From Eledone cirrhosa (taxonomy: Eukaryota): a DNA stretch of 64,000 nt. Where the stretch lies: the NCBI GenBank assembly GCA_964016885.1, contig OZ024740.1:138756001-138820000 (forward strand), in the 5' to 3' direction. Below are positions 1,188 through 58,854 of the stretch, one piece after another. Numbering within the stretch: position 1 is the stretch's first letter; each line of letters opens with the position of its first letter. The position numbers were made by a program, and so were the translations under genes. Below the pieces are notes generated by a model, which worked only from the letters and a program-made list of their open reading frames with translations, searched no databases and was not told the origin of the DNA.

Positions 1188-1193
<6 letters not shown>

Positions 1194-1245
<52 letters not shown>
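1194..1245. repeat. (AAT)n tract; 3' flank/tail of Tx1 copy A
   Basis: Perfect AAT run abutting the LINE 3' end. Confidence 0.95.
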
Positions 1246-1247
<2 letters not shown>

Positions 1248-1501
1248 TTTCTTTATTAACCACAAGGGTTTACATAAAGTAGACATTAAGGACAGTGCAG
1301 GACAATACAGGACGGTACAAATGGGCATTTCTGCGTGTAAAAAAAACAAAAAAAAACAGAGGGTGTAACAAAAAATAACAATGAAAAATTCCCCAATAGG
1401 AGGGAGACTTCGGAGGGACATTTGTGGAGAAAGCCCAGTAAAAGGCCACAGTGACCCTGACCACCAAGGCAAGTGCCCTCTCCCAGTTTTCCACCTTTAA
1501 T

Positions 1502-4170: not shown

Positions 4171-4205
4171 GTTGAAAAGGAGTGGAAAAAGATGGGAAAG
4201 ACCAC

Positions 4206-5813
4206 TTACCTCACTTCTCGTCGAGGAGGGATGGTTTCTCCACCCTTCTCACTGCTTGTGACCTCCTTTTGTTTTAGTGTCGTGTACGTTTTCTGTGTGA
4301 TACGAGTGATTTGTATGTGTGGAGGTGGTGTTAATTTTGGGGGTATTGTGTAGTCTTTTTCTGTGATGCTGGTGTTGTGTTAGATGTAGTGTAATAATTG
4401 GTTGTTGTTCAAATTTAATGTTGTGTAATGTGTATCGTTTTGGTTGTTTTGTTTTGTTTGCGTTTGTTGTGGGTTTGTTTCTGTTTCACTTTTTGGTGAT
4501 TTTTGTGGTGTTAGTGATGGTGGTTGTGGGGTTAATGATGGTGATGGTGTTGGTGTTTGTGGTGATGGGGTTGGTGATGCTGGTGTGGGTGGTAGCACAG
4601 CTGTGTTAACTTTTTTGTTTGTTTGCTTATTTGTTTCCCCCTGCATTTTGTTTTTGGAGGGCGAAGGAAGAGGATTTTTTTCTTTTTGGGGTTCTTTTTT
4701 TCTCTTTCTTTTTTCCTGATACCATTTCCCACTCCTCCTCGTCACAATCTGTCTCCAGTTGGGATAGTTCGGGAGTGGAAAATCCTCCACAGGCGTTTGT
4801 TTTGGTTGTGGCGTGGTGGATGGTGCAGGCGCTGGTGCTAATTCTGGCGCGATGGGTGGTGGTGTTGGTTTTGCTACTGCTGCTGGGGTTGTTGCTGCTA
4901 CAGTTGCTTCTGTTGTTGCTGCTACAGTTGTTGCTGACATTTCTGCTACTGGTGGTGTTGATGGTTGAATCTCTGGGGTGGGTAAGAGAAGTGGCCTCAA
5001 CTTTTTAGCTTGAGAGCAGAAAGCCTTTAGGTGGGTTCCATCGCCACAAACGACACACCTATGCCTTCTACCCTCAACGATTACGGTGAGGTGGCTGCCG
5101 TCATTGAGGTTTATCACCTCTGGAATTTCCTCAATGTTTTTTTGGTCCGCTTGGATCAGGAGCTCCATCCCAGATCCGACCAGTTCTCCTGCTTTTCTTT
5201 TGTTACCTCAATTATTTTCGTGTTGGCTTCGATGCCGGCGAGGACGGCAGCCATTAGCCAGGGAATTTCGATGGCTGGCGGAGCGTGGGTCACCCTGATC
5301 TTCATGAGTCTCTGACCACAATAGCTTGGGACGAGTGTGAACTCGTCACTTCTTAATGGGGCCATGGAGTGCTCTCTGGCTTCCTGTGGGGTTCCAAAGA
5401 ACGCGTCCACGATTCCATATTTCTGCCCACGTTGATGTGGGTTTTTTTCGCCCACACATGTCCCAAAGATCTTTGTATCTGGGACTCGGATGCCCGTTCC
5501 ACTCGGCGTGATTTTGTGCTTATCGTCCCATATGACACGGTGCATAGGCGCCGATGCTCCATTTTATTAGATGGAGGGGGGGGCTGACCCTGTGCCCATC
5601 TTTTTTTACCATTCTCTTGGCTTCATTTAATTCATCCTGGCTTACCTCGATTATTTCGCTTTTCTTGGCTGCTTTGGCAAATGACACATTTCGTTTTGCG
5701 TTGGTGTTGACGTTGTTGTTATTGTTAGTTTTGTTATTGTTATTTTTAGTTTCAGTTGTGGTGGTGGTGTCAATGGTGTTCGGCGTGGAAAAGTTGATTC
5801 TGGGTGAATCCAT
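4206..5813 (-). pseudogene. ORF1 (nucleic-acid-binding protein with one CX2CX4HX4C knuckle), frameshifted
   Basis: VEGRRHRCVVCGDGTHLKAFC; TISTKSRRVERASESQIQ homologous to ORF1 at 55890; ends GTG AGG TAA at 4206. Confidence 0.85.
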
Positions 5814-6282
5814 TTCGATGTCACGAGATAATAATTTTTTTTTTTTTGCTGTTGTTGGTATGGTGGTGGTGGGGCTGGCGTCTTTACTACCTGCAGTTAT
5901 TGGTAATGGCGGAAATGAATGTCTGCATGTGACAAATTTAAATTATTGCCACTGCTTATATTTTTAGTGTTGGCAACCGCAGTAATATTTACAATGGGGG
6001 TATTGGTGTGAGGTGTTAGTTTGTGAGGAAGGCTGTCAGCTTTGTGTGGCTGAGTGCCGTCTATGTTTTTTTTTTTTCAAAGAAAGTTTTTGTTTGATAA
6101 TTATAAAAGTTTAAATTTTGGGCTCAAAGCCCCAAATTTTTTAGTGTCCTTTTCAGAAAGCAATATATGTGAACTTATAAACACTTAACAACAAACATTT
6201 TCCATAACTGGCAATTTGAAACAACTGAAAACAACAAACCTTTGCGGAGCTCACGATAATACGATTTCCTACGTAGGTCGCC

Positions 6283-8625: not shown

Positions 8626-8640
8626 TAATAATAATAATAA

Positions 8641-11600
8641 TCCTCGATAAGAGTGTTTAAATATCGAACCTAAACAGTTCGAATAACGGTGAAATGGAGA
8701 CTAGAACGTCATGTGACAGACTCTCACCCAACAGGTGCTCCCTGGCTCAGCAGCAGGAACCTGACTGTCAACCAAATACTGCTGATGTTGGAGGAAGAAG
8801 AAGAAGGAAAGGGGCCAGAACCAACTGGACGAAAGAATTGAATAGAACTGTTATGCAATGTTACCTGAAAAGTAACTCCAAGGAGAGGGGCTATAGGAGA
8901 CGGATGCATAACATCTGGAACGAGATTGGTCTATTTAAATTAGATGAACAAAAATTGGCCGAGCAGGCTCGGGTAATAAGAACTAATGGGTGGGTAAGCG
9001 AGCTGGAACTGGAGGAACTGAGCAGAGAGAATAGCTTGGAGATGGAGGGTGTAGTATGCCAGACAAACGAGTCAGTGGGAAATGAAGGTGAAGAGGTCGA
9101 GAGAACGGAGGAACCACCCGAAGCAGACAATGATCTGAATACTGAGATAAATAATACCTGGAACAGAGATACGGCCACTGAGGAGATGAATGCTGACGGG
9201 CTAGGACAAGATTCGGTTGACATCCTAAATTTAGTGGTAGATGAATTGAACAATGATAGTGGAAGACCTATGAACCTAAGATTTGTAGACAGGAAAAAGT
9301 TAAAAGAAACAACAGCTAAGGTAAACAAAGTCATCCCATACCTTTAGGCGAGGAGCCTTCACCAGTGCAACAATATCCTCAAAGCAACAGCAAATACGGT
9401 GAGGAAACTACTTGGTATAAAAGCGAGAGGAAACAACAGACAAGAAAGAGCAGAGCCTTGGTGGAAGAAACGACTGAGTGGTCAAATCAAGGAAATGAGA
9501 AATGACATAGGAAAGCTTGAGTCACTACTGAATGGGACACTAAAAAACATAGGCACTAAAAATAGACTGGAAATAAAGTACAAAACTAGGAGGAAAAAGC
9601 TAAATATTATCATAGAGGAACTGAAGCAACGCATTGTAGCAAAGAGTGCAAAAATCAGGTGATACGAGAACAGAGTCAGTCAGTATAAACAGAACCGCAT
9701 GTTCGACAACAACCAGAAGATGCTGTTTGGACAGCTTGAGGGGAAAGAAAGAGGCAACGACTTGATCCCTGGGGCGGAACAAACTAAAACATTCTGGAGA
9801 GGAATATGGGAGCAGGATGTTAGACATAATGACCAGGCAGGGTGGATTGAGACAGTACAGAGGGAGATCGGTGAGCAGGCACACCAACAAACTGATTTGA
9901 GTATCACAGTTGAAACTCTTAAGGGGCAGGCCAAAAAACTAACCAACTGGAAATCACCAGGCCCAGATGGTGTGCAGGGGTATTGGATTAAAAATTTAAC
10001 ATCCCTCCACCCGAAGCTGACGGCCATGTTCAATGACTGCTTGGTGTCGGGTGAGGTGCCAGAGTGGTTGACAAAAGGTACCACAGTTCTGATAAGGAAA
10101 GACCGAATCAAGGGTAATGATGTTACCAACTATAGACCTATCACATGTCTGTCCGTAATGTGGAAACTGTTGACAAGCATTGTGTCTGAGGAAATCTACC
10201 ATCACCTCCACACAAACAACTTGTTACCGGACGAACAGAAAGGATGCTGAAAGAAGTCACGTGGTACAAAGGACCAGTTACTTATTGATAAGATGGTAAT
10301 GGGGAATTGCAGGAGGAGACACACTGATCTTGCCATGGGATGGATAGACTACAGAAAGGCATTTGACATGGTGCCTCATTCTTGGATCACCAAAAGCCTG
10401 GAGATCTTCAAGGTGGCAGATAACATCAGACAGTTGATGGGCATGAGTATGAGGTCCTGGGAGACAGAGTTGACATCAACTGGAGAATCCTTGGGAAGCG
10501 TGAAGATCAAGAGAGGTATCTTCCAGGGAGATAGCCTGTCCCCTTTATTGTTTGTCCTTGCCCTGATGCCCTTGACCATTATGCTGCGAAAAGTGAGAGC
10601 AGGATACAAGTTGGGAAAGGGAGAGCTTACCATCAATCACCTCCTCTTCATGGACGATCTTAAGCTCTTCGGGAAGAGTGAGAAGGAGTTGGATGTGCTT
10701 GTTGGCACTGTCCGTATTTTCAGCAGTGATATATGTATGCAGTTTGGTATTAGTAAATGTGGAGTCATTGTGATGAGGAGGGGTAGGTTGAGCAGAAGTA
10801 ACGGAATCCAGATACCAACAGGTGAGATGATAAAGGAAATTGATTCTGAGGAAGGATACAAGTATTTGGGCGTTCTGGAGGCTGATGGCATAAAGAACAA
10901 AAAAATGAAGGAATTGTTAAGAACTGAATACATTCGGAGAGTAAGGAGCGTATTGAAGTCACATCTGAACAGCAGAAATGCCATAAGCGCAGTAAATTCC
11001 CGAGCTGTGTCTATTATTAGGTACAGTGCGGGAATTCTGAGATGGAATGTTGCTGAACAAAAAGAAATGGATAGGAAGACTAGGAAGCTATTGACTATCT
11101 ACAACATGTTCCACAAGAGGAGTGATGTCGATAGACTCTACCTAAGGAGATCTGAGGGTGGAAGAGGTCTTATCAGCATAGAGGACTGTGTTCAGATGGA
11201 GAAAAACAACCTATACAAATACGTGACTGATAGTAAGGAGCCAATGCTCAGAACTGTACTGAAGGAGGGGAAAGTAGGCCAGGGGATGTCCAAGGAGGAA
11301 ATAACATCAAGGAGAAAGAGCAGCCTTCAGGGAAAATTCCTTCATAGTACCTTCTTTGAGAAAACTGAATTTAGAGATCCACAGACATGGAACTGGTTGA
11401 GAAGAGGAGACCTCAAAAAGGCTACAGAAGGAATGCTAATGGCTGCGCAGGAGCAGGCCCTCAAAATGAAGTGGTTGAAGCACCATATTTACAAGGAGGA
11501 GGCTAGCCCACTGTGCAGGATCTGTGGAGAGAGAGAGGAGACTGTGGCTCACATTGTATCCGAGTGTAAACACCTAGCCCAGACCCACTATAAGGGCTGG

Positions 11601-12150
11601 AGACATGATGTGATGGGCAGGGTGATCCACTGGCACCTGTGCAAAGTAAACAATTTACCACATTCTGAGAAATGGTATGAGCATAGGCCAGAGGCGGTGA
11701 TGGAAAACGATCAGGTGAAGGTGCTATGGGATTTTAGGATACAGACGGACAAGAAACTGGAACACAATAGACCTGATCTGGTGGTTGTGGACAAAGAAAA
11801 AAGATCGTGTCTGATTGTGGATGTGGCCTGCCCATTCGACACGAGAGTGCAAGAGAAGGAGAGGGAGAAAATTAACCGATACCAGGACCTAAAGGTGGGA
11901 GGTGAAAAGGATTTGGAACTGCCATGAAGTCAAAGTGATCCCGATTGTCATAGGCGCACTGGGGACTATCTCCAAAAGTTTCCAGGGATGGTTAAAGAAA
12001 ATCGGCCCCTTCACGCTTTTTGGAACGCTTCAAAAGGCATGCTTGCTGGGAACAGCAAGAACCCTCCGATACGTCCGATAGGTAGTGGCTTGATATTCAT
12101 TCCAACGGACTTTCCAGTTAACCAACATCAATGACTGAGATTCAAGGAAT
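8641..12150 (+). mobile_element. R4/Dong-like RT+RLE retrotransposon (family 1), whole ORF region, 5' UTR truncated
   Basis: Single long ORF broken by stops at 9345, 9660, 10248 and a +1 frameshift near 11897; [45 protein letters not shown] motifs; AAT/AAC tracts on both sides. Confidence 0.92.
8694..12082 (+). pseudogene. R4-clade polyprotein (RT + restriction-like endonuclease), disrupted
   Basis: ORF-track pieces 8694-9347, 9399-9662, 9699-10250, 10293-11927 are collinear with the 54730-51363 copy; start ATG of that copy reads ATA here (8661). Confidence 0.9.
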
Positions 12151-12186
12151 AACAACAACAATAATAATAATAATAATAATAATAAT

Positions 12187-26991: not shown

Positions 26992-29050
26992 TAGGAGTAT
27001 ATTAAAACAGTAGAGGTAGGAGTATAGTAAAATAGTAGAGGTAGGAGTATAGTAAAATAGTAGAGGTAAGAGTATAGTAAAACAGTAGAGGTAGGAGTAT
27101 AGTAAAATAGTAGAGGTAGGAGTATAGTAAAACAGTAGAGGTAGGAGTATAGTAAAACAGTAGAGGTAGAAGTATAGTAAAACAGTACGGGTAGGAGTAT
27201 AGTAAAACACAGTAGGGGTAGGAGTATAGTAAAACACAGTAGGGGTAGGAGTATAGTAAAACAGTAGGGGTAGGAGTATGGTAAAACACAGTAGGGGTAG
27301 GAGTATAGTAAAACAGTAGAGGTAGGAGTATAGTAAAACAGTAGGGGTAGGAGTATAGTAAAACACAGTAGAGGTAGGAGTATAGAAAAACAGTAGGGGT
27401 AGGAGTATAGTAAAACACAATAAGGGTAGGAGTATAGTAAAACACAGTAGAGATAGGAGTATAGTAAAACACAGTAGGGGTAGGAGTATAGTAAAACACA
27501 GTAGGGGTAGGAGTATAGTAAAACACAGTAGGGGTAGGAGTATAGTAAAACAGTAGGGGTAGGAGTATAGTAAAACACAGTAGGGGTAGGAGTATAGTAA
27601 AACAGTATGGGTAGGAGTATAGTAAAACACAATAGGGGTAGGAGTATAGTAAAACACAATAGGGGTAGGAGTATAGTAAAACACAGTAGAGGTAGGAGTA
27701 TAGTAAAACACAGTAGGGGTAGGAGTATAGTAAAACACAGTAGGGGTAGGAGTATAGTAAAACAGTAGGGGTAGGAGTATGTTAAAATACAGTAGGGGTA
27801 GGAGTATAGTAAAACAGTAGAGGTAGGAGTATAGTAAAACAGTAGGGGTAGGAGTATAGTAAAACACAGTAGAGGTAGGAGTATAGAAAAACAGTAGGGG
27901 TAGGAGTATAGTAAAACACAGTAGAGATAGGAGTATAGTAAAACACAGTAGGGGTAGGAGTATAGTAAAACACAGTAGGGGTAGGAGTATAGTAAAACAC
28001 AGTAGGGGTAGGAGTATAGTAAAACAGTAGGGGTAGGAGTATAGTAAAACAGTAGGGGTAGGAGTATAGTAAAACAGTATGGGTAGGAGTATAGTAAAAC
28101 ACAATAGGGGTAGGAGTATAGTAAAACACAATAGGGGTAGGGTTATAGTAAAACACAGTAGAGGTAGGAGTATAGTAAAACACAGTAGGGGTAGGAGTAT
28201 AGTAAAACAGTATGGGTAGGAGTATAGTAAAACACAATAGGGGTAGGAGTATAGTAAAACACAGTAGGGGTAGGAGTATAGTAAAACACAGTAGGGGTAG
28301 GGTTATAGTAAAACACAGTAGAGGTAGGAGTATAGTAAAACACAGTAGGGGTAGGAGTATAGTAAAACACAGTAGGAGTAGGAGTATAGTAAAACACAGT
28401 AGGGGTAGGAGTATAGTAAAACAGTATGGGTAGGAGTATAGTAAAACAGTAGGGGTAGGAGTATAGTAAAACAGTATGGGTAGGAGTATAGTAAAACAGT
28501 ATGGGTAGGAGTATAGTAAAACACAATAGGGGTAGGGTTATAGTAAAACACAATAGGGGTAGGAGTATAGTAAAACACAATAGGGGTAGGAGTATAGTAA
28601 AACACAGTAGGGGTAGTAGTATAGTAAAACACAGTAGGGGTAGGAATATAGTAAAACACAGTAGGGGTAGGAGTATAGTAAAACACAGTAGGGGTATGAG
28701 TATAGTAAAACACAGTAGGGGTAGGAGTATAGTAAAACACAGTAGGGGTAGGAGTATAGTAAAACACAGTAGGGGTAGGAGTATAGTAAAACACAGTAGA
28801 GGTAGGAGTATAGTAAAACACAGTAGGGGTAGGAGTATAGTAAAACACAGTAGCGGTAATAGTATAGTAAAACACAATAGGGGTAGGAGTATAGTAAAAC
28901 ACAGTAGGAGTAGGAGTATAGTAAAACACAGTAGGGGTAGGAGTATAGTAAAACACAGTAGAGGTAGGAGTATAGTAAAACAAAATAGGGGTAGGAGTAT
29001 AGTAAAACACAGTAGGGGTAGGAGTATAGTAAAACACAGTAGGAGTAGGT
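26992..29050. repeat. Minisatellite/satellite array, 28-bp unit gtaggagtatagtaaaacacagtagggg with 26-bp variant
   Basis: Roughly 75 tandem units; explains the repetitive pseudo-ORFs CFTILLPLL / FYYTPTPTV / GRSIVKHSR. Confidence 0.97.
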
Positions 29051-44940: not shown

Positions 44941-46359
44941 ACAAAAGCGAAGGAGCTACTGGCGGATGCGAAAAAATATATAGTGTACGGGGAAAATGGT
45001 TCATTCACAATCCATTCCCCCCCCCCCCCGGAACTAAAAAGCCAGAGACTCCTAAACACGGTCATGTTTAGGACAATCTCGAACAAAAGTAAAAAACCAG
45101 CTCAACCATCACAGAGCGAGATAGAGCTGGTTTTAAAAGACGTCATGAAGGACATCACCTTCATTCAGAAGGATAGACTCTACGGGAGTCTATCCATTCT
45201 CATGAAGGACAGGGACACAGCAGTGAAACTGTCCATCAAACCAATCACATCTACCGCATACACCTTCTACCCTACGTACATGGGTAGAAGAACACAAAAA
45301 ATAAAAATCCACACCATCCTGCCGATTATGGACATATGGTGGGTTTTGACAGGTTTTCCGGACCTGGAGGATGACATGCTGGTGTCCATGGGAAAGGCAT
45401 CGGGTGACGCGTTCAGTGGAACGAGCCTCGAACTTGTAGTTCAAATGAGGCCCGAAAGGATCGCCCAGATCCCTGAACGCGTCATACTGGATGATCTAAC
45501 CTTCATCAACATTACCGTTGAGGGTAGACGGCCCTCGTGTTACCTCTGCGGAACCAGAGGTCACCTGAGGGCTGTCTGTCCCCAACTTAATAAGAAAACC
45601 CCAATCCTGTCTACACCACCAACAACTGCACAACCAACACAATCACCACAACTACTACTACAAAAACAACCACCACAGCTCAAACCAAAACAAAACAATG
45701 TCCAACCCATCCCCTCCACTCAAAAAACAAAAACAATTTCCAAAACACCCGTACCGCAAACACAACCCGAAAATATACCCCTCCCCTCCAACGCGGAAGA
45801 TGACCCTAGTTCGTCGTCAGACGAGGAGGAGCACTTCCACACAATCAAAAGAAAAAAAAGAAAACACACCTCAGACACACAAATGAAAAAAACCCCTCCC
45901 CAAAACATAACACTGACACCAACACAAAAGAGCTCACAACAACAGCAAACAAAAAACACCACACAAAAACAAAAACATGCATACACATACATAAATACAA
46001 GAAACAAAAAACTGTTAAACATTGTGTACAACAACAATCTAATAAAAACACAAGGGCCTAACTTCACCCAGGCAGGGGATTTCCCCCACCTCAAAATGAT
46101 TAAGGCCCCACAGGACACCTATAAAACTTTAAAAAACAATTTTAAAGAGGACGTGGGTCCCCCCTGCGTCGGGCCCATTAACCGCGTCCTCCTAAAAAAC
46201 TATCCCACCCCCTCCCCAAACACCCACACAACTCCAAGCTCCCCAACCACACAACACACTGATGCCCCCACACTTCCACAAACCACCACCCCAACCAACA
46301 ACCCATCCCCCACCCTAATGGAAATTGTGCAGCCCGATACCCGGGACGCAGAGAGGTAA
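44941..46359 (+). CDS. ORF1 protein, 5'-partial (CX2CX4HX4C knuckle, P/T/Q-rich C-terminal half)
   Basis: Frame is open from the 5' junction (TKAKELLADAKKYIV aligns with EELQEAKKMV of copy C); CYLCGTRGHLRAVC; ends GAG AGG TAA. Confidence 0.88.
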   Translation, partial: TKAKELLADAKKYIVYGENGSFTIHSPPPPELKSQRLLNTVMFRTISNKSKKPAQPSQSEIELVLKDVMKDITFIQKDRLYGSLSILMKDRDTAVKLSIKPITSTAYTFYPTYMGRRTQKIKIHTILPIMDIWWVLTGFPDLEDDMLVSMGKASGDAFSGTSLELVVQMRPERIAQIPERVILDDLTFINITVEGRRPSCYLCGTRGHLRAVCPQLNKKTPILSTPPTTAQPTQSPQLLLQKQPPQLKPKQNNVQPIPSTQKTKTISKTPVPQTQPENIPLPSNAEDDPSSSSDEEEHFHTIKRKKRKHTSDTQMKKTPPQNITLTPTQKSSQQQQTKNTTQKQKHAYTYINTRNKKLLNIVYNNNLIKTQGPNFTQAGDFPHLKMIKAPQDTYKTLKNNFKEDVGPPCVGPINRVLLKNYPTPSPNTHTTPSSPTTQHTDAPTLPQTTTPTNNPSPTLMEIVQPDTRDAER

Positions 46360-46383
46360 GTGCCTTTTCTCTTCACCACCAAC

Positions 46384-49300
46384 ATGGCTATGCTAAGAGT
46401 AGGCTGTTTAAATGCGCGTGGCCTGGGCTCAACTTGGAAGCAAGCAATGCTTCTAAATGACCTCAGGTCACAACGTATAGATGTGATGGTTATTTGCGAG
46501 GCCCGGATCAGCAACGTGCGACAGCTGGCCCCCACCTTTGATGACTTTGAGATGCACGCATCTCTCTGTCAACCAGGAGGTGGGGGTGGAGTTGTCGTTC
46601 TGCTGCAAAAACATCTGGGTCTCGCAACACAGATGGTACATTTGGACCCGGAAGGTCGACTAGTGGTTCTGGACCTTGGCAGTGGTAAAGGCGGAGCGTT
46701 TAGGTTGGTAGCCGCCTACGGCCCTTTCGGGTCAATGCGGCCGGACTTCTTCCATCGTCTGGAGACTTTTCTAGGGACGTTCCGCTCCTTGCTATTAGTG
46801 GGGGACTGGAATGGTATCCTAGATGCACGCTGGGACTACGTAGGGGCCTGCCCCGATAGAGAGAGGTGTAATAGCCTCAAAGGGTTAATCGGTCGATTTG
46901 ACCTGGCCGATAGATATCGACTAGATTTTCCGACTGCGCCAACCTGGACTTGGGCAAATCGTAGCGGATCATCTAGGTCGTACCTAGATAGGTTCTTAGT
47001 TAGAATTAAGGATAAGAACTTTTTAAGTTGTCCAAAAATGCGCATGGTTGGCTATTCAGACCACAAATTAGTGACCTGCATGGTCAACCTTGACAGAACT
47101 CATAGACAGGGCCCCGGTTACTGGAAGCTCAACTTGTCCTTGCCGGCAAGTAGAGCCTACAGGAATCGGATTAGTACGTTAGTTAAGGAACGGTTGACTG
47201 GAGCGATCGTCAACAGCAGGTGGTGGGTATCTCTAAAGAGAGAGATTAGAGTAGTCTCGATAGAATTTAGTAAGGTTCTAGCAGCGGATAGGAATAGGAA
47301 GGAAAGGGAGCTAATAGATAGAGTAGAAGAGGCAATTAGAAGCGGCGACGTGGCCAGAGTGCTAGCGTCGAGAACGGCTTTGAGCCAGTTTTTCGACGCG
47401 AAGCACGAAGGCTGCGTTGTCCGAAGTAAAATACGTGCTCTAGGGAACGAGGGGACCAAAGCTGTTAGCTGGGCCCGCGTGACAGAGGCCAACAGTGGAA
47501 CTAAATCCACCATCCGGTCTTTGCGAGACCTGGATGGACGGGCGATTCTTGAGCCTAAGCAGATGTGTGAGGCCTTTCAAAGGCACTTTGCCCGACTGTT
47601 CGGGAGGGGCGGGGAGCCGGTTGGGAACGTGGACTTCGGTCCATACCTCGACGGCCTGCCGCGCCTCTCGGACAGGGAGGCGAAGTCCTGCGAGGAGCCG
47701 ATTTCGGCCGCTGAGATAGAGGACGTGCTGAGCCAATGCGGCAAACGCAAATCCCCGGGTCTCGATGGTCTTCCTTACGAATTATATCTAGCTATGCCGG
47801 ACTTGTTCCCCGATCTCCTCGAGGCGGTCTACTGCAACTGGCAACAGAGCGGGAGAATTCCCTGTACTGTGACCAAGGGCGTAGTCACGCTAGTGAGGAA
47901 GGACGAGAACAAGGGGGACGAAATAAGTAACTTCAGGCCCATAACTCTGCTAAATACAGAGTTACAGATTTTGGCCAAGGTGCTAGCAAAGAGGTTGGCG
48001 CTTGTCGTGGGCAACCTGGTGGGAGATGCGCAGACATGCGCTATCCCGTCCAGGTCCATCCATGACAACCTCCACCTCATGCGATACATCATAGAGAGGG
48101 TTGGGAACGAACCCGGCTTTGGTGGGGCTCTGATCAACTTGGATCAATCTAAGGCGTTCGATAGGGTCGACCATGGTTACCTGGATGCGGTGCTAGCGGC
48201 GGCAGGCTTCGGACCCGTTTTCAGGGGCTGGATCACTGCTATGCACAGCAGCCGCATCTGCTCTAGGGTCAAGGTGAACGGCTACCTCTCGGAGCCGTTC
48301 AAAATCGCGCGGTCCATCCGACAAGGGTGCCCTCTCTCCTCCCTTCTGTATGTGTTGACTCTCGAGCCACTACTGCGGAAGTTGGAGTTGTTGCAGGGCA
48401 TCCCTTTGGAACCGGGATTGCGGAAAGCGGTGTCGGCCTACGCCGATGACGTGACAGTAATGGTGTCGACGGCCTCCGAAATCGAGGCGGTCGGCACCTT
48501 ACTGGAGGAGTACGAAAAGTTCACAGGGGCTAAGCTGAACCGGGACAAGTCGATCGGTTTGCAACTCGGCACGTGGAGGGGCAGACCGATGCCCTCCGAT
48601 GGCGTCGTCGGACGCTGGACGGAGGGCCCGGTGAAGTTGCTCGGGGTCTGGTTCGGACCGGACCTCCAGGTGGAGAAAAACTGGGCGGAGGTTACGAACA
48701 GTGTGTTTGCACTGACCCAGAAGTGGGCCAGTTGCAAACTATCCCTGAAAGGTCGGGCGGAGGTGGCGAACACCTACATAGCGACCGTCATCTACTACCG
48801 CCTGACCGTAGTGCCCTGCCCAAGGGAAACCCTCACCAAGATGGAGCGCGCGCTCTTCCAATTCCTTTGGAAGAGGCGGGCTGCTATGGTGAGGAGATCC
48901 ATCTGCTGTCAACACCCTTCGAAAGGAGGGCTGGGGATGCCGTGGCTAATGATGCGTAAACACGCATTAAGGCTACGGCACTTCTACGTATTCCTCACCG
49001 GACAACCGGTGTGGGCCTCGTTTGTGAGACGAACCTTTCCCAGACTCGTCTCACTCACCGAGCTGCAATCCTGGGTCAAGCAAAGACCGAGAAAACTGGG
49101 CGCCTGGCACACTGAGTGTGCCCAGGCGCTCACCGCCCTCTGGCAGGCGGATCCGGTTATCAGTGGAGACTCCACCGCAACATTCTATAGAGGGCTGGTA
49201 CGCAGCAGGTGCGACGACGCCCTCGGAGAAGCCCTAGACATGGAGGAGGACGAACTGGCCAGCCTGTTCGGTAGGACATTCAGCCCGAGACCTATGGACA

Positions 49301-49821
49301 ACTTCCAGAAGACCCTGGCCTGGCAGTGCTACCGAGGGGCTTTACCCGTTCGAGAAAGGCTCTACAGACACGGGCGCCCGGGTAGGGACCCCGCCAAAAA
49401 GATCTGTCCCAGATGCGTGTGCGACGAGGAAACCGTTGCACACGCATTGGTACACTGCTCGGGCGTAGCCGATCTGTGGGGCTATGTCGAACAACTGCTG
49501 TCAAGGGTGGGACCGATCCGGTTGACCACCGAGTCTATTGTAATGATCAAGCCGCCTCCCCCCTTCAAAGATGAAGCAGAGGCGGTGTTTCTGTGCGTAA
49601 TAGCCATGGCGAAAGAGGTTGTATGGTGGACGCGTCTGAAAGGACTGAGGTCAGGCACCTTTCTCTCTGGCCAACAACTGGTCCGTTTCTTCCGATATCA
49701 TTTCGGAAGAAGGATCAGGATGGAGAGAGAGGTGCTGCACCCCAGCCGTTTCTATGAAAGATGGGTGAAAGTGGCGAGAATGGCCCGTGTGAATGGGCCT
49801 TCACTCTACATCAGACTATAG
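46384..49821 (+). CDS. ORF2: APE endonuclease + reverse transcriptase + C-terminal zinc finger, 1145 aa
   Basis: Uninterrupted; VGCLNARGL, GDWN, SYLDRF, SDH (APE); KSPGLDGLP, NFRPITLLN, DQSKAFD, RQGCPLS, AYADD (RT); CPRC..ETVAHALVHC. Confidence 0.96.
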   Translation: MAMLRVGCLNARGLGSTWKQAMLLNDLRSQRIDVMVICEARISNVRQLAPTFDDFEMHASLCQPGGGGGVVVLLQKHLGLATQMVHLDPEGRLVVLDLGSGKGGAFRLVAAYGPFGSMRPDFFHRLETFLGTFRSLLLVGDWNGILDARWDYVGACPDRERCNSLKGLIGRFDLADRYRLDFPTAPTWTWANRSGSSRSYLDRFLVRIKDKNFLSCPKMRMVGYSDHKLVTCMVNLDRTHRQGPGYWKLNLSLPASRAYRNRISTLVKERLTGAIVNSRWWVSLKREIRVVSIEFSKVLAADRNRKERELIDRVEEAIRSGDVARVLASRTALSQFFDAKHEGCVVRSKIRALGNEGTKAVSWARVTEANSGTKSTIRSLRDLDGRAILEPKQMCEAFQRHFARLFGRGGEPVGNVDFGPYLDGLPRLSDREAKSCEEPISAAEIEDVLSQCGKRKSPGLDGLPYELYLAMPDLFPDLLEAVYCNWQQSGRIPCTVTKGVVTLVRKDENKGDEISNFRPITLLNTELQILAKVLAKRLALVVGNLVGDAQTCAIPSRSIHDNLHLMRYIIERVGNEPGFGGALINLDQSKAFDRVDHGYLDAVLAAAGFGPVFRGWITAMHSSRICSRVKVNGYLSEPFKIARSIRQGCPLSSLLYVLTLEPLLRKLELLQGIPLEPGLRKAVSAYADDVTVMVSTASEIEAVGTLLEEYEKFTGAKLNRDKSIGLQLGTWRGRPMPSDGVVGRWTEGPVKLLGVWFGPDLQVEKNWAEVTNSVFALTQKWASCKLSLKGRAEVANTYIATVIYYRLTVVPCPRETLTKMERALFQFLWKRRAAMVRRSICCQHPSKGGLGMPWLMMRKHALRLRHFYVFLTGQPVWASFVRRTFPRLVSLTELQSWVKQRPRKLGAWHTECAQALTALWQADPVISGDSTATFYRGLVRSRCDDALGEALDMEEDELASLFGRTFSPRPMDNFQKTLAWQCYRGALPVRERLYRHGRPGRDPAKKICPRCVCDEETVAHALVHCSGVADLWGYVEQLLSRVGPIRLTTESIVMIKPPPPFKDEAEAVFLCVIAMAKEVVWWTRLKGLRSGTFLSGQQLVRFFRYHFGRRIRMEREVLHPSRFYERWVKVARMARVNGPSLYIRL

Positions 49822-50124
49822 GTGAGGAAGATGAAAGACCAAGGGAGCACCCCTTCTCTGTGCTCCTGAGGAGAAGGGTTGCACACTTTTTTCGGGGGTG
49901 TGTGCGACCCCCCAAGGCGCCTCCTCTCTATTGAGGATTTTGTTATAAATTTTATTTTTTGTTATATCTTATTTTATTTTTATATTTTGTTATTGCCTCC
50001 TCCTTATTGAGGACGCCTTTTTGTGTAAACTCCCCCCTTTGTACTTGTCCCACTTTTGATGCCCTAGTGGCAAATAAAAGAAACAAAAAAAAAACAAAAA
50101 AATAATAATAATAATAATAATAAT

Positions 50125-51237: not shown

Positions 51238-51285
<48 letters not shown>

Positions 51286-51362
51286 GTTCTTTGAGTCTCA
51301 ATCATTGATGTTAGTTAACTGAAAAGTTTGTTGAAATGAATATCAAGCCACTACCTGCAGCC

Positions 51363-54300
51363 TCAGATATCCAGGACGTATCGGAGAGTTCTTGCTGTTC
51401 CCAGTAAGCATGCCTTTTGAAGTGTTCCAAAAAGCGGGGCGGGGCCAATTTTCTTTAACCATCCCTGGAAAGTTTTTGAGATAGTACCTAGTGCGCCTAT
51501 GACAATCGGGACCACTTTGACTTCATGGCAGTTCCAAATCCTTTTTACCTCTCACTTTAAGTCCTGGTATCGGTTAATTTTCTCCCTCTCATTCTCTTGC
51601 ACTCTCGTGTCGGATGGGCAAGCCACATCCACAATCCAGTTTCTTGTCCGTCTGTATCCTAAAATCCCATAGCACCTTCACCTGATCGTTTTATATCACC
51701 GACTCTGGGTTATGCTCAAACCACTTCTCAGAATGTGGTAAATTGTTTACTTTGCATAGGTGCCAGTGGATCACCCTGCCCATCACATCATGTCTCCAGC
51801 CTTTATAGTGAGTCTGGGCTAGGTGTTTACATTCGGATACAATGTGAGCCACAGTCTCCTCTCTCTCTCTCCTCAGACCCTGCACAGTGGGCTAGCCTCC
51901 TCCTTGTAAATATGGTGTTTCAGCCACTTCGTTTTGAGGGCCTGCTTTTGCGCTGCCATTAGCATTCCTTCTGTAGCTTTTTTAAGGTCTCCTCTTCTAA
52001 ACCAGTTCAATGTCTGTGGATCTCTGAATTCCGTTTTCTCAAAGAAGGTACTATGAAGGGATTTTTCATGAAGGCTGCTCTTTCTTCTTGTTGTTATTTC
52101 CTCCTTAGACACTCCCTGGTCTATTGTCCTCTCCTTCAGTACAATTCTGAGCATTGGCTCCTTACTATCGGTCACGTATTTGTGTAGGTTGTTTTTCTCC
52201 ATCTGAACACAGTCCTCTATGCTGATAAGACCTCTTCCACCTTCAGATCTCCTTAAGTAGAGTCTATCGACATCATTCCTCTTGTGGAACGTGTTGTAGA
52301 TAGTCAATAGCTTCCTAGTCTTCCTATCCATTTCTTTTTGTTCAGCAACATTCCATCTCAGAATTCCCGCACTGTACCTAGTAATAGACACAGCTCGGGA
52401 ATTTACTGCACTTATGGCATTCCTACTGTTCAGATGTGACTTTAATACGCTCCTTACTCTCCGAATATATTCCGATCTTATCAATTCCTTTATTTTTTTT
52501 TGTTCTTGATGTCATCAGCCTCCAGAATAGCCAAATACTTGTATTCTTCTTCAGTGTCAATTTCCTTTATCATCTCACCTGTTGGTACCTGGATTCCGTT
52601 GCTTCTGCTCAATTTACCTCTCTTCATCACAAGGACTCCACACTTACTAATACCAAATTGCATACATATATCATTGCTGAAAATACGGACAGTGTCAACA
52701 AGCACATCCAACTCCTTCTCACTCTTCCCGAAGAACTTAAGATCGTCCATGAAGAGGAGGTGATTGATGGTAAGCTCTCCCTTTCCCAACTTGTATCATG
52801 CTCTCACTTTTCGCAGGATAATGATCAGGGGCATCAGAGCAAGGACAAACAACAGAGGGGACAGACTATCTCCCTGGAAGATACCTCTCTTGATCTTCAC
52901 GCCTCCCAAGGATTCTCCAGCTGATGTTAACTCTGTTTTCCAGGACTTCATACTTTTGCTCAACAACTGTCTGACGTTATCTGCCACCCTGAAGATCTCT
53001 AGGCTTTTGGTGATCCAAGAATGAGGCACCATGTCAAATGCCTTTTTGTAGTCTATCCATCCCATGGCAAGACCAGTGTGTCTCCTCTTGCAATTCCTCA
53101 TTACCATCTTATCAAAACGTAACTGGTCCTTTGTACCACGGGACTTCTTTCGGCATCCTTTCTGTTCGTCCGGTAACAAGTTGTTTGTGTGGAGGTGATG
53201 GTAGATTTCCTCAGACACAATGCTTGTCAACAGTTTCCACATTACGGACAGACATGTGATAGGTCTATAGTTGGTAACATCATTACCCTTGATTCGGTCT
53301 TTCATTACCAGAACTGTGGTACCTTTTGTCAACCACTCTGGTACCTCACCTGACATCAAACAGTCATTGAACATGGTTGTCAGTTTCGGGTGGAGGGATG
53401 TTACAATTTTAATCCAATACCCCTGCACACCATCTGGGCCTGGTGATTTCCAGTTGGTTAGTTTTTTGGCCTGCCCCTTAAGAGTTTCAACTGTGATACT
53501 CAAATCAGTTTGTTGGTGTGCCTGTTCACTAATCTCCTTTTGTACTGTCTCAATCCACCCTGCCTGGTCATTATGTTTAACATCCTGCTCCCATATTCCT
53601 CTCCAGAATGTCTTAGTTTGTTCCGCCTCAGGGATCAAGTCGTTGCCTCTTTCTTTCCCTTCAAGCTGTCCAAACAACATCTTCTGGTTGTTGTCAAACA
53701 TGCGGTTCTGTCTATACTGACTGACTCTGCGCTCGTATCGCCTAATTTTTGCACTCTTTGCTACAATGCGTTGCTTCAGTTCCTCTATGATAATATTTAG
53801 CTTTTTCCTCCTAGTTTTGTACTTTATTTCCAGTCTATTTTTAGTGTCTATGTTTTTTATTGTCCCATTCAGTAGGGACTCAAGCTTTCCAATGTCATTT
53901 CTCATTTCCCTGATTTGACCATTCAATCGTTTCTTCCACCAAGGTTCTGATCTTTCTTGTTTGTTGTTTCCTCTCGCTTTTATGCCAAGTAATTTCCTCA
54001 CCGCATTTGCTGTTGCTTTGAGGATATTGTTGCACTGGTGAAGGCTCCTCGCCTCAAGGTATGGGATGACTTTGTTTACCTTAGCTGTTGTTTCTTTTAA
54101 CTTTTTCCTGTCTACAAATCTTAGGTTCATAGGTTTCCCACTATCATTGTTCATTTCATCTACCACTAAGGTTAGGATATCAACCAAATCTTCTCCTAGC
54201 CCGTCAGCATTCATTTCCTCAATGGCCGTATCTTTGTTCCAGATGTTATTTATTCCAGCATTTAGATCATTGTCTGATTCGGATGCTTCCTCAGGTCTCT

Positions 54301-54730
54301 CAACCTCTTCACCCTCATTTCCCACTGGCTCGTTTGCCTGACATACTCCACTCTCCATTTCCAACTTAATCTCTCTGCTCAGTTCCTCCAGTTCCAATTC
54401 GCTTATCCATCCATTAGTTCTTATTACCCGAGCCTGCCCGGCCAATGTTTGTTCATCTAATTTAAATAGACAAATCTCTATGTTTTGCATCCGTTTCCTA
54501 TAGCCTTTTTCCATGGGGTTACTCTTCAGGTAATATTCCATGACAGTTCTATTCAATTCTTTCGTCCAGTTGGTTCTTGTCCCTTTCCTTCTTCTTCCTC
54601 CAACACCAGCAGTATTTGGATGACAGCCAGGTCCTTGCTGCTGGGCCAGGGAGCACCTGCTGGGTGAGAGTCTGTCACATGACATTCCAGTCTCCACTCC
54701 ACCGTTATTCGAACTGTTTAGGTTCGACAT
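51363..54730 (-). pseudogene. R4-clade RT+RLE polyprotein, disrupted
   Basis: 644-aa open N-terminal part, then stops at 52796 and 52490, GA slippage at ~51865, deletion of the NRPD motif near 51637, stop near 51552. Confidence 0.9.
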
Positions 54731-55104
54731 TGAAACACTCTTATCGAGGATTGGTGAATGTATGGTTACATAACCACCGGTTATTTCATCAGCTCCGGTG
54801 ATTTGATCACCCTCGGTGATTTTAGCGTGGCACTATCACGCTGTAGACGAACATAAATAAACAAACAAACAAATAGGTAAAAACCTCCAAAAATAAGCAT
54901 AAGTTTCATTGTAATGTAATGTTTGAATGTCTGACTTAGTTTTTTTTGCTTGTCTGTCTGTTTGTTTTTCTTTTCTTTTTTCTTTTCTTTACGTTTTTCG
55001 TTGCTGCTGTGCTGATTTCATTTTGATTTTTGATTTTTTGATTTTTTGACCGGGTCATCAAATCAGTCTATTTATATCTTTTGATGCCTTCCTCATTTAG
55101 TGTC

Positions 55105-55605: not shown

Positions 55606-55675
<70 letters not shown>

Positions 55676-55889
55676 GAATGCCATGGTTGACGGAGGCTCG
55701 GCTCTGTAAGGTATAGTAAATTTTAAACCCTATAACAATTGTAGATTGTTTAAAACTTTAACCAAATTGTAGACAAAAACACCCTTCTCCTCGTGAGAGG
55801 GGTCTTTCTGCCCGTTATTTGGCCCTTCGGGGTTAAATAACTGCTTATTGGGGTTTTGTGCCCAATATTTATTTTAAACCAAAAAAAAC

Positions 55890-58088
55890 ATGGCTACAAA
55901 AAAGAATTTTCACAAGTCACTCCCACTCATTCCGTCTTCTTCTTCCTCAATCGTCACTACACCAGAGAGAAGATTGTCTCTCTCCCTCCCTTCTCTAAAT
56001 GTGTCTCTCTCCCTCCCTTCTCTTTCGCAAGCGACGCCAGTAAAGAAAAATAGTTTCAAAAATCATGTGCAAAACATGGAACATTTCTCCACGACGACGA
56101 CAACGACGAAAAAGGTGTGCGGTAAATACGAAAACCCATTTCATTCGTCTGACGTCATGAATAATAGCAGTAGCAGCCGTAATAACAGCAGCAGCAGCAG
56201 CAACAGTGACAATGAAAACAACAGTAGCAGCCGCAACAGCAGCAGCAGCAGCAGCATAAACAACAACAGTATTAGCAGCAACAGCAACAACAACAGCAGC
56301 AGCAGCAATAACAACAACAACCACAGCAACAGCGGCGGCGGCAGTAGTCGTAGTACTTGCAGCAACAACAAAAGTAACAGCAGCTCTGACGACAACAACA
56401 ACAACAACAACACCAGCAAAGAAAAACCAATGTCGTTTGCAGGTATCACAAAGAACCTGGAAACCATCCTCATAACAAATGAGGAATTACAGGAAGCAAA
56501 GAAGATGGTGATGAAAACCGGACACCGAGCAATCTGCAAGGCAGCCGAAAAATTTTTCGAAACCCAACAGCACTGTACGGTCACGTACCCTACAGTAAGC
56601 ACAAAATCCCGTAGGGTTGAAAGAGCCACAGAGGCTCAAATACAAAAAGCCTTAGGGTCTGTGTGGCAGCGGAAAACGTATATCACCCGAGGCAAGAAAT
56701 ATGCCACCGTAGACGTGCTTTTTATCACACCCCAGGAGGCAAAGGCTCAATCCTTAGTGACCCTAATGGTGTTGGTGCCCTCCTACTGCGGGCAAAAGAT
56801 TGTGAGGGTCAAACTGACCCACGTCTCCCGTGGGATGGCCCCTTCTTGGCTGGCCGCGTCTGTCCTCGTCGGAATCGAGGACAAAACAACTGTACTGCAA
56901 GTACACAAAAAAGTAAGAGAAGATTGGGACGGCACCTCCATTGAGATGTTAATCCAAACCAACCAGGAGTGCATCGAAGCTATCCCGGATGTGATAGACT
57001 TCGATAACAGCACTCAACTGCCCATAAGTGTTGAGGGCAAACGCCCGAAATGCTTTCGCTGTGGATCGAAGACTCACCTCAGGGCCTTCTGCAACGAGAA
57101 GACCCTGAGAAAGGAGAAAACCCCCTTCCTTCCGAAACCGGCTCCACTGCTACCAGCAACAAGACAAGCGGCAACCAGGAACGATCGGTCCGTGGCACCC
57201 ATACCCACGCCACGGAAATCAAGAACAGCAGCAGCAGTGGAAGTATTAACAACAACAACAGTAATACCAACTGCAGCTGCAACAGAGACTCCACTGCAAA
57301 CATCACCAACAAGTGAAAGAGTGGAGCTGGTACCCCTCTCCGACCTCACAGAATCAGACATGGAGTGTGAGATGGGAGAGGGATGGCAAAAGGTCGCAAG
57401 AAGGCACAAACGCAGAAGCAGCGCATCGTCGCCTTCGAAAAGGGAGGAAAGAAATGAAAAAAGGGTAAAGGCTACTGCAAAGAGACTCTCAGCAGCAACA
57501 CCACCAACACCATCACCACCCACACTAGCACCACCATCACCACCGGCGACAACCCCACCGCCAACAACAACACCTTCAACACCACCACCACAAACACCAA
57601 CATCGCAAACACCAACATCGCAAACACAACAACAAAACACACACACCCAGCAACAACGACAAGAAAATAGCAGAACCACACCCCACCCCCAGAAAAACAA
57701 ATGCACGGCAATAAATACACACAACAAGAAACTAATGACTTACATAATTGAACACACACACATTTCACAGCACGACTACATAATACCAGCACCAATCAAA
57801 ACACCAACGAACATAAGACTGGTAAGAATAGCACAGAAACAATACACAAACATTAAAACGAAATTCCCCAACGCAGTTGGTGATTTCAGAGACCTAGGAG
57901 GGACTCTCAACCGGAGAGTATATTCGGACATACTCATAGAAGAGCCGACGACCAGCCGAAGGGACGATTCAACGGTCCCTTCACCAGACGATCAAGTGAA
58001 AAGGGACTTTCGGGCCGGGGCCTATGGACAACTTCCAGAAATCTCTGGCCTGGCAGTGCTACCGAGGAGCCTTACCAGTTCGGGATAA
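55890..58088 (+). CDS. ORF1 protein (732 aa; S/N-rich N-terminus, CFRCGSKTHLRAFC knuckle) with a 27-aa out-of-frame ORF2-derived tail
   Basis: Uninterrupted ATG-to-stop frame; homologous to ORF1 of copies A and B. Confidence 0.88.
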   Translation: MATKKNFHKSLPLIPSSSSSIVTTPERRLSLSLPSLNVSLSLPSLSQATPVKKNSFKNHVQNMEHFSTTTTTTKKVCGKYENPFHSSDVMNNSSSSRNNSSSSSNSDNENNSSSRNSSSSSSINNNSISSNSNNNSSSSNNNNNHSNSGGGSSRSTCSNNKSNSSSDDNNNNNNTSKEKPMSFAGITKNLETILITNEELQEAKKMVMKTGHRAICKAAEKFFETQQHCTVTYPTVSTKSRRVERATEAQIQKALGSVWQRKTYITRGKKYATVDVLFITPQEAKAQSLVTLMVLVPSYCGQKIVRVKLTHVSRGMAPSWLAASVLVGIEDKTTVLQVHKKVREDWDGTSIEMLIQTNQECIEAIPDVIDFDNSTQLPISVEGKRPKCFRCGSKTHLRAFCNEKTLRKEKTPFLPKPAPLLPATRQAATRNDRSVAPIPTPRKSRTAAAVEVLTTTTVIPTAAATETPLQTSPTSERVELVPLSDLTESDMECEMGEGWQKVARRHKRRSSASSPSKREERNEKRVKATAKRLSAATPPTPSPPTLAPPSPPATTPPPTTTPSTPPPQTPTSQTPTSQTQQQNTHTQQQRQENSRTTPHPQKNKCTAINTHNKKLMTYIIEHTHISQHDYIIPAPIKTPTNIRLVRIAQKQYTNIKTKFPNAVGDFRDLGGTLNRRVYSDILIEEPTTSRRDDSTVPSPDDQVKRDFRAGAYGQLPEISGLAVLPRSLTSSG

Positions 58089-58539
58089 ACTCTACAGGCA
58101 TGGAGGTGCCGTCAGCCGGGCATGTCCGAGATGCGCGCAGGGCGACGAAACCGTCTTGCACGCACTCGTCCAGTGTCCGAAAATTGCTGACATGTGGGTT
58201 TATGTCGAACACCTGCTGTCGCGAGTGGGACGGATCCAGCTATCAGCTGAGTCCATCGTGAGGATTGCCCCGCCCTCTTCCTTTAGCCGGGAAGGGCAGG
58301 CAGTTTTTATCTGTCTGGTGGCCATGGCGAAAGAGATAGTATGGTGGACACGTTTGAAAGAGCTGAAGACGAGCACTTACCTCTTCGGTGATGCCCTGAT
58401 TAACTTTTTCAAATTTCATTTGAAAAGGAAAATCAGGGTAGAGATGGAAGTGCTCTCTTCCCAGCATTTTGTTGAAAGATGGGTGAGAGAAGCAAGAATG
58501 GCCCGAGTGAATGGGCCTACTCTGAGTACGTATCTGTAA
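58006..58539 (+). pseudogene. ORF2 C-terminal remnant (zinc-finger domain), open frame with internal ATG at 58024
   Basis: MDNFQKSLAWQCYRGALPVRDKL..CPRC..ETVLHALVQC. Confidence 0.85.
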
Positions 58540-58787
58540 ATTAAAGGTGGAAAACTGGGAGAAGGCACTTGCCTTGGTGGTCAGGGTCACTGTGGCCTTT
58601 TAGTGGGCTTTCTCTACAAATGTCCCTCCGAAGTCTCCCCCCTATTGGGGAATTTTTCATTGTTATTTTTTTGTTACATCCTCTGTTTTTGTTCTTTACA
58701 CGCAGAAATGCCCATTTGTACCGTCCTGTATTGTCCTGCACTGTCCTTAATGTCTACTTTATGTAAACCCTTGTGGTTAATAAAGAA

Positions 58788-58854
<67 letters not shown>

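Follow-up and report, generated by a model that had tools for sequence, protein, structure and literature searches.

Exchanges of the 5' UTR and ORF1 between LINEs are usually attributed to recombination or template switching. A splicing route is described for SVA elements: the subfamilies SVA_F1 (MAST2-SVA) and chimpanzee STK40-SVA were each founded when an upstream exon was spliced onto an acceptor in the downstream element, and were then amplified (PMC6139936). This is the closest case to the hybrid LINEs reported here, which are known from DNA alone and in which a splice-type junction likewise appears to have founded an amplifying subfamily. In SVA_F1 and STK40-SVA the donor came from a host gene and the element is non-autonomous (PMC6139936), whereas in the hybrids both donor and acceptor lie in autonomous LINEs; here the swap exchanges 5' UTR and ORF1 and uses a donor that is a conserved feature of the LINE itself.

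Spliced integrants of human L1, the SpIREs, carry intra-element splices in the 5' UTR and ORF1 and are called dead ends (PMC5860796). The hybrids share with SpIREs splice-type junctions fixed in genomic LINE copies, and differ from them in joining two different elements and in having been amplified to at least 17 copies; copy C, the internally shortened element treated below, is not a SpIRE (PMC5860796). Its described precedents are the deletions of Hebe (bdelloid rotifer) and GilD (Giardia), where one LINE family is preferentially hit by microhomology-bounded internal losses, and copy C belongs with this class (PMC2861651). Both repair and RT template jumping have been proposed for deletions of the Hebe, GilD and SIDE type (PMC2861651, PMC6740152), template jumping being discussed for SIDEs (PMC6740152). 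Microhomologies in the family of copies A and C are mostly 1–4 nt, against 5–14 nt for Hebe, GilD and SIDEs, and its deletions reach 3 kb (PMC2861651, PMC6740152). SIDEs were amplified, whereas copy C is single (PMC6740152); HAL1 half-L1 elements resemble copy C in keeping ORF1 and losing EN and RT but form multi-copy non-autonomous families (PMC5753468).

Neither a conserved donor at a LINE ORF1 stop nor LINE-LINE families made by splicing were found in the literature searched; most subscription papers and Repbase entries lay outside it, and prior notice is possible. The accessible text of PMC13690279, PMC5203782 and PMC13282606 describes neither. Copy C alone is ordinary.

Three LINE copies in the window

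The window, meaning the whole 64-kb stretch of DNA that was analysed (contig C1 of a 3.0-Gb genome), carries three L1/Tx1-type LINE copies, here called A, B and C. The features of this clade were found as Pfam matches to an APE endonuclease, an RT and a C-terminal zinc finger in ORF2 of copy B, and as a CCHC knuckle in the ORF1 translations; the zf-RVT score is just below the cut-off in copy B and above it in copy C. Bearing on the Tx1 subgroup are the microsatellite flanks and a weak match to a named element, P0013 (31% over 16% of the query). The features of copies A and B are as follows.

1193 to 4270, reverse strand: ORF2 and 3' UTR of copy A, of the same family as copy C, with internal deletions of its own of 546 and 160 nt
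4204 to 4212, reverse strand: donor over the ORF1 stop of copy A, hexamer at 4209-4204, stop at +2 to +4
46330 to 46332, forward strand: CAG in the ORF1 tail of copy B, 23 nt upstream of the donor
46353 to 46361, forward strand: donor over the ORF1 stop of copy B, hexamer at 46356-46361, stop at +2 to +4
46384 to 49821, forward strand: open ORF2 of copy B (APE endonuclease, RT, zf-RVT), ending in TAG after a pyrimidine-rich stretch

Copies A and C are 95.6% identical over 844 nt of ORF2 and 3' UTR and do not form separate families there; they differ mainly in ORF1. Comparison of 4270-5900 (reverse strand) with 55890-57995 shows that ORF2 is common to both, as are roughly the final 45 nt of ORF1, and that the ORF1 bodies are different, with the boundary of the swap coming after an AG. 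A splice origin of this swap is unsupported, a donor-bearing parent being found in 0 of 29 matches. By eye, the A/C family also has a short inverted repeat 35-15 nt upstream of the donor (4230-4250, reverse strand), which is kept between A and C with a G-U change and whose 5' arm contains the breakpoint of copy C.

Elsewhere in the window, two copies of an unrelated single-ORF LINE family, 91% alike, lie at 8639-12186 (forward) and 51250-54832 (reverse); this family, matched exactly by its pattern 2,066 times genome-wide, served as the deletion control. At 26992-29049, short units are repeated in a long tandem array, and both strands carry open frames.

The junction in copy C

Copy C is complete at both ends and is organised as follows, all on the forward strand.

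55616 to 55675, forward strand: (ATT)n tract, the target microsatellite, 5' of copy C
55676 to 55889, forward strand: 5' UTR, from about the start of which most siblings align
55890 to 58088, forward strand: 732-aa open frame, an ORF1 whose translation shows a CCHC knuckle
58006 to 58007, forward strand: junction left by the loss of 2,958 nt, a gap that begins 33 nt upstream of the family donor
58007 to 58539, forward strand: remnant of the ORF2 C-terminus (zf-RVT domain), without a start
58540 to 58790, forward strand: 3' UTR, poly(A) signal at 58779-58784
58791 to 58854, forward strand: (ATT)n tail

The first-pass annotation had read this element as a retrotransposed spliced ORF1 mRNA, broken at a position equivalent to the donor. 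Its 5' UTR, 732-aa frame, 3' UTR and (ATT)n flanks are indeed present; the ORF1 is not clean, since its 11 last native residues are swapped for 26 out-of-frame ORF2 residues. The gap was measured against a natural full-length sibling (L038). A 601-nt query across the junction gave 40 scored matches in the genome, and the 39 besides copy C end within a few bases of 58006. All 29 of the siblings read run 33 nt beyond 58006 before reaching their own donor motif; copy C thus broke upstream of the donor, not at it. The missing segment has the ends AT..GA or TG..AA, with 1 nt of microhomology; with the minor 3'-side allele (8/38 copies) the microhomology grows to 3 nt, and the column counts, read by hand, give GA..AG as the best register, never GT. 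The family is abundant, and the junction has a single match genome-wide, with up to 2 mismatches allowed. With a parent segment that is GT..AG in no register, a junction that occurs once and ordinary microhomology, the spliced-mRNA reading did not survive.

On this comparison of siblings, copy C almost certainly arose by one internal deletion, without splicing, in a Tx1/L1-type family prone to such losses. It may reflect an RT jump at integration or later loss by end-joining, a splice in neither case; an assembly artefact at the junction is thought unlikely, since the same kind of junction occurs in siblings. The idea that copy C is itself a spliced integrant can draw on the preservation of both ends and of an open frame (a frame of more than 700 aa survives in ORF1 of only 1 of the 39 siblings), and on one register that ends in AG if the parent carried the minor allele. 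It is nevertheless highly improbable: there is no GT at the 5' end in any register, the true donor is 33 nt away, and copy C is a single copy in a family full of comparable deletions. The retention of ORF1 with loss of EN and RT is a HAL1- or SIDE-like trait, in an element that still has its zf-RVT remnant and an altered ORF1 tail; amplification of copy C into a multi-copy family was not found, the junction being single in the genome.

Internal deletions across families

Deletions of at least 100 nt are present in 18 of the 39 siblings of copy C, each at a different place. Microhomology of at least 2 nt marks 13 of 22 clean junctions, against 16% for random pairs, and short inserts were seen at 9 of 31 junctions, a total that takes in copies A and C. 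Over the A/C family (loci L032-L070, L107-L163 and L320-L349) the rate is about 20-28 large deletions per 100 kb, and a second A/C sample contained 8 deletions over 45 kb and 27 over 79 kb. Family B, by contrast, had 0 deletions of at least 30 nt in 142 kb plus 58 kb, including 23 older copies (33 kb, 1.7-2.6% non-CpG divergence). The unrelated LINE control showed 1-2 deletions in 35 kb (13 copies), and other LINE families a few, in small numbers. Of two A/C samples, one shows a positive trend of deletions with divergence (rho 0.35, p 0.001), and in the other this trend is absent (rho -0.13). The idea of a simple deletion clock across the genome is unsupported, with 0 deletions in about 200 kb of family B, older copies included. 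The balance tips slightly towards an origin of the large deletions at integration, and the A/C family and family B offer a natural contrast for the timing of internal deletions in LINEs.

GT..AG fits some register in 2 of the 22 clean deletions (L054 and L068), with a random expectation of 1.7%; these were not accepted as splices, as their sites look weak and each is single. At L052 a 16-nt insert is copied from right beside the junction, and at L056 (about 3045-3951 in element orientation) a C-type 5' part is joined, away from the donor, to a truncated and internally deleted A-type element, a join that looks like a template switch.

The donor motif over the ORF1 stop

The donor hexamer reported over the ORF1 stop of copies A and B is present at both places, and its proposed conservation across families was borne out and extended. 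The motif was first noticed in four families; their endonuclease domains share 50-78% identity with that of B. The wider tabulation used a pattern anchored on the ORF2 start alone, blind to upstream DNA and built to exclude most B and A/C copies. Of its 3,558 matches, the first 100 listed were counted by eye, and 91 of them have G|GTRRGT over the ORF1 stop; the 9 motif-less copies among these 100 are apparently decayed members of the same families. The 91 span at least six families, and all three stop codons (TAA, TGA and TAG) occur at +2 to +4. The spacer after the motif varies in length and sequence, and in one subfamily the last ORF1 codon is Gly, not Arg. On the sense strand the hexamer at 46356-46361 is unique within the 5.2-kb copy B, and the A/C family has one extra copy inside ORF2. 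The motif is not common to all L1/Tx1 elements, a possibility ruled out by its occurrence at 0 of 22 ORF1 stops in distant relatives (22 stops from the 33 metagenome loci examined out of 80).

What stays constant across families is -1 G, +1 G, +5 G and +6 T, while the identity of the stop varies. These invariant positions match the pattern with which a donor consensus pairs with U1. It is very probable, from this conservation, that the motif is a functional donor or U1 site. A rival account takes it for a translation termination or reinitiation signal that happens to resemble a donor, and has the hybrids described below arise by RT template switching on AG microhomology. The motif does always hold the ORF1 stop and precede a short pyrimidine-rich spacer and the ORF2 start, as such a signal might; a variable stop within fixed U1-pairing positions speaks against that role, and the account as a whole is improbable.

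U1 is known to suppress polyadenylation, as in telescripting and at the HIV-1 major splice donor, and retroelement donors control RNA processing between structural and enzymatic genes in the spliced gag RNA of copia and the Ogre intron. Those cases are LTR elements, retroviruses or host genes; here the elements are LINEs and the U1 role is putative. It is possible, at a little short of an even chance, that the site is kept since bound U1 would prevent a long A-rich transcript from being polyadenylated too early. Both B and C have a poly(A) hexamer 315-330 nt upstream of the donor, a position that coding constraint may explain.

At the other end of ORF2 (for example at 49800-49830), nearly all families have a TAG preceded by a pyrimidine-rich run. 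In B and D this TAG is followed by another donor-like hexamer, an arrangement that resembles a recursive splice site.

Hybrids between families D and B

Spliced integrants were sought as copies in which the end of the ORF1 exon is followed by sequence other than the donor. Family D has 803 anchor matches. Of 32 matches with a base other than G at +1, 17 run into the ORF1 tail of family B, 2 into a second junction, and 13 are point changes or the loss of one base. The 17 enter the B tail directly after the CAG seen at 46330-46332 in copy B, the acceptor-like triplet where hybrids outside the window are joined to family B. Included in the 17 is the second junction of L443. Downstream of the join, the hybrids are 92-95% like B and 78-81% like D. 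The second, nested junction occurs in three copies, where the same D exon end is joined after a CAG 76 nt upstream in the hybrid's own ORF1. Since the two units differ in these three copies, the nested junction joined two elements. Both sets (17 matches and 3 copies) sit at dispersed loci and were amplified after the event. Family D junctions were sought at the donor position alone, and the hybrid set represents two founding events.

Both junctions fall exactly at +1 of the consensus donor and directly after a CAG (YAG) in the downstream parent. Such triplets are rare, at 5 and 8 per 400 nt of ORF1 tail, and a YAG stands on the 3' side of only 1 of the 22 ordinary deletions. A stretch of about 17 nt shared by the parents some 20 nt upstream, where a homology-driven switch would naturally fall, was not used as a crossover. 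It is these junctions that bear on the second half of the rival account, template switching. Microhomology junctions do occur in these elements and the A/C chimera at L056 is joined off the donor; moreover, there is a 2-nt microhomology, AG, at both hybrid junctions, and RT template switching can therefore produce the same appearance. Yet both amplified junctions lie at the exact +1, after CAG, and bypass the nearby homology. The hybrids were probably made by splicing, and they are evidence at the DNA level for apparent use of the donor.

The 5' part of the hybrids is only 71-78% like the single family D copy compared, so the D parent subfamily is tied to them only by the last 23-40 nt, over which D parents match (803 matches). 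The common D variant gave 9 deviant matches and no hybrid. Two other junctions lie exactly at donor +1 and do not follow an AG, one in L134 (A/C) and one in a family F copy. At L102, near 1469 (reverse strand), a D-to-B hybrid has the other ORF1-tail variant and one extra change at the junction; it either branched early from the hybrid lineage or arose separately.

Search for other spliced integrants

Beyond family D, family B has 876 intact-donor copies, and its 9 + 7 + 13 deviant matches, all read, are point changes or small indels. The A/C family has 1,535 intact-donor copies; its deviants were read for 30 of 56 non-G, 7 of 7 double-deviant, 24 of 24 G-non-T and 41 of 41 at +3, and none of those read is a placeable product ending at an AG, one being a microhomology deletion from +1. 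Two of the 41 deviants at +3 (G000:C5:103262777 and G000:C12:27057084) leave the element within a few bases of the donor into unplaced DNA. Families E2 and F gave 3 and 5 deviant matches, none spliced, and donor-junction hybrids were absent from the deviant matches read in B, F, E2 and A/C. Because the patterns need an exact anchor, and later ones lose matches with A at the last position, coverage of deviant copies is incomplete. Contigs of unrecorded kind showed 12 joints against copy B, none at the donor, and 15 of 436 joints inspected against L038, again none at the donor; neither set is counted as evidence.

Among about 2,500 copies, then, the number of ORF1-only or mini-intron integrants is 0, which bears on two further readings of the motif. 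One is a programmed ORF1-only mRNA, in which the donor would be regularly spliced to a distal site such as the ORF2-ending TAG, making ORF2 an intron. In its favour, a TAG after a pyrimidine-rich stretch ends ORF2 in nearly all 3'-end clusters, and the A/C family, the exception with a TAA end, has an acceptor-like CAG in its 3' UTR; in B and D, moreover, a splice to the TAG would restore Arg plus a stop and leave ORF1 unchanged. The pyrimidine run, however, may stem from a conserved C-terminal peptide, the immediate stop after the splice is missing in several families, and no such integrant was found among the deviants read beside the 876 B and 1,535 A/C intact-donor copies. A conserved acceptor in the 3' UTR is clear only in the A/C family. 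The missing integrants are weak counter-evidence, since, given cis-preference (PMC5860796), RNA without ORF2 in cis would seldom be mobilised. Taken together, a programmed ORF1-only mRNA appears unlikely.

The other reading is a mini-intron of 40-55 nt spanning the ORF1 stop and the ORF2 start, whose removal would yield an in-frame ORF1-ORF2 fusion protein. The splice would keep the frame because phase 2 is shared by the donor and, in the four families that were read without constraint, by the AG of the Arg codon close to the ORF2 start. As the RT is encoded in cis, such RNA should leave intron-less copies, and none were found in B, A/C, D, E2 or F. The intron would also be very short. Most families have a weak AAG as its acceptor, and the earlier TAG of family E is out of frame. 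The chance that such an intron exists is slight.

Proposed mechanism

Of the readings considered, the one preferred here combines the two results and is given a probability of roughly 0.6: copy C is a one-off, non-splice deletion, and the motif is likely a true 5' splice site, mostly bound by U1 and occasionally spliced to the ORF1-tail CAG of another element. Because the elements form head-to-tail arrays, a transcript could read through from one element into the next. The donor at the end of ORF1 would then be spliced to a cryptic CAG in the ORF1 tail of the next element, which would drop the ORF2 of the first and yield one 5' UTR and ORF1 followed by the ORF2 and 3' end of the other. With both proteins encoded, the hybrid RNA would be able to retrotranspose in cis and to found a hybrid subfamily. 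For most of the time the donor would bind U1 without splicing. Trans-splicing would give the same appearance as read-through and splicing.

Of 39 C siblings, 11 have a Tx1 3' end upstream on the same strand and 1 has one on the opposite strand; for 39 B copies the numbers are 6 and 0. One D-type copy shares its strand with a B copy and lies 5.7 kb upstream of it. Mixed-family head-to-tail arrays are common, with a spacing of about 5.9 kb. The tails are mostly (ATCT)n-type repeats in family B (L244-L251) but (ATT)n in the A/C family, which suggests different microsatellite targets.

Rare hybrids cannot explain why the donor site is conserved. The broader view would be of a Tx1 lineage with a selected, built-in 5' splice site that sets the output of ORF1 versus ORF2 and allows exchange of promoter and ORF1 in mixed tandem arrays; this is offered tentatively, with the odds somewhat against it. 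A conserved donor at the ORF1 stop, together with hybrids joined there, would give a precise RNA-level mechanism for module swaps between LINEs. If true, LINE evolution could be modular without DNA recombination or template switching, and a strong splice site in a LINE would here be maintained by selection, not just tolerated.
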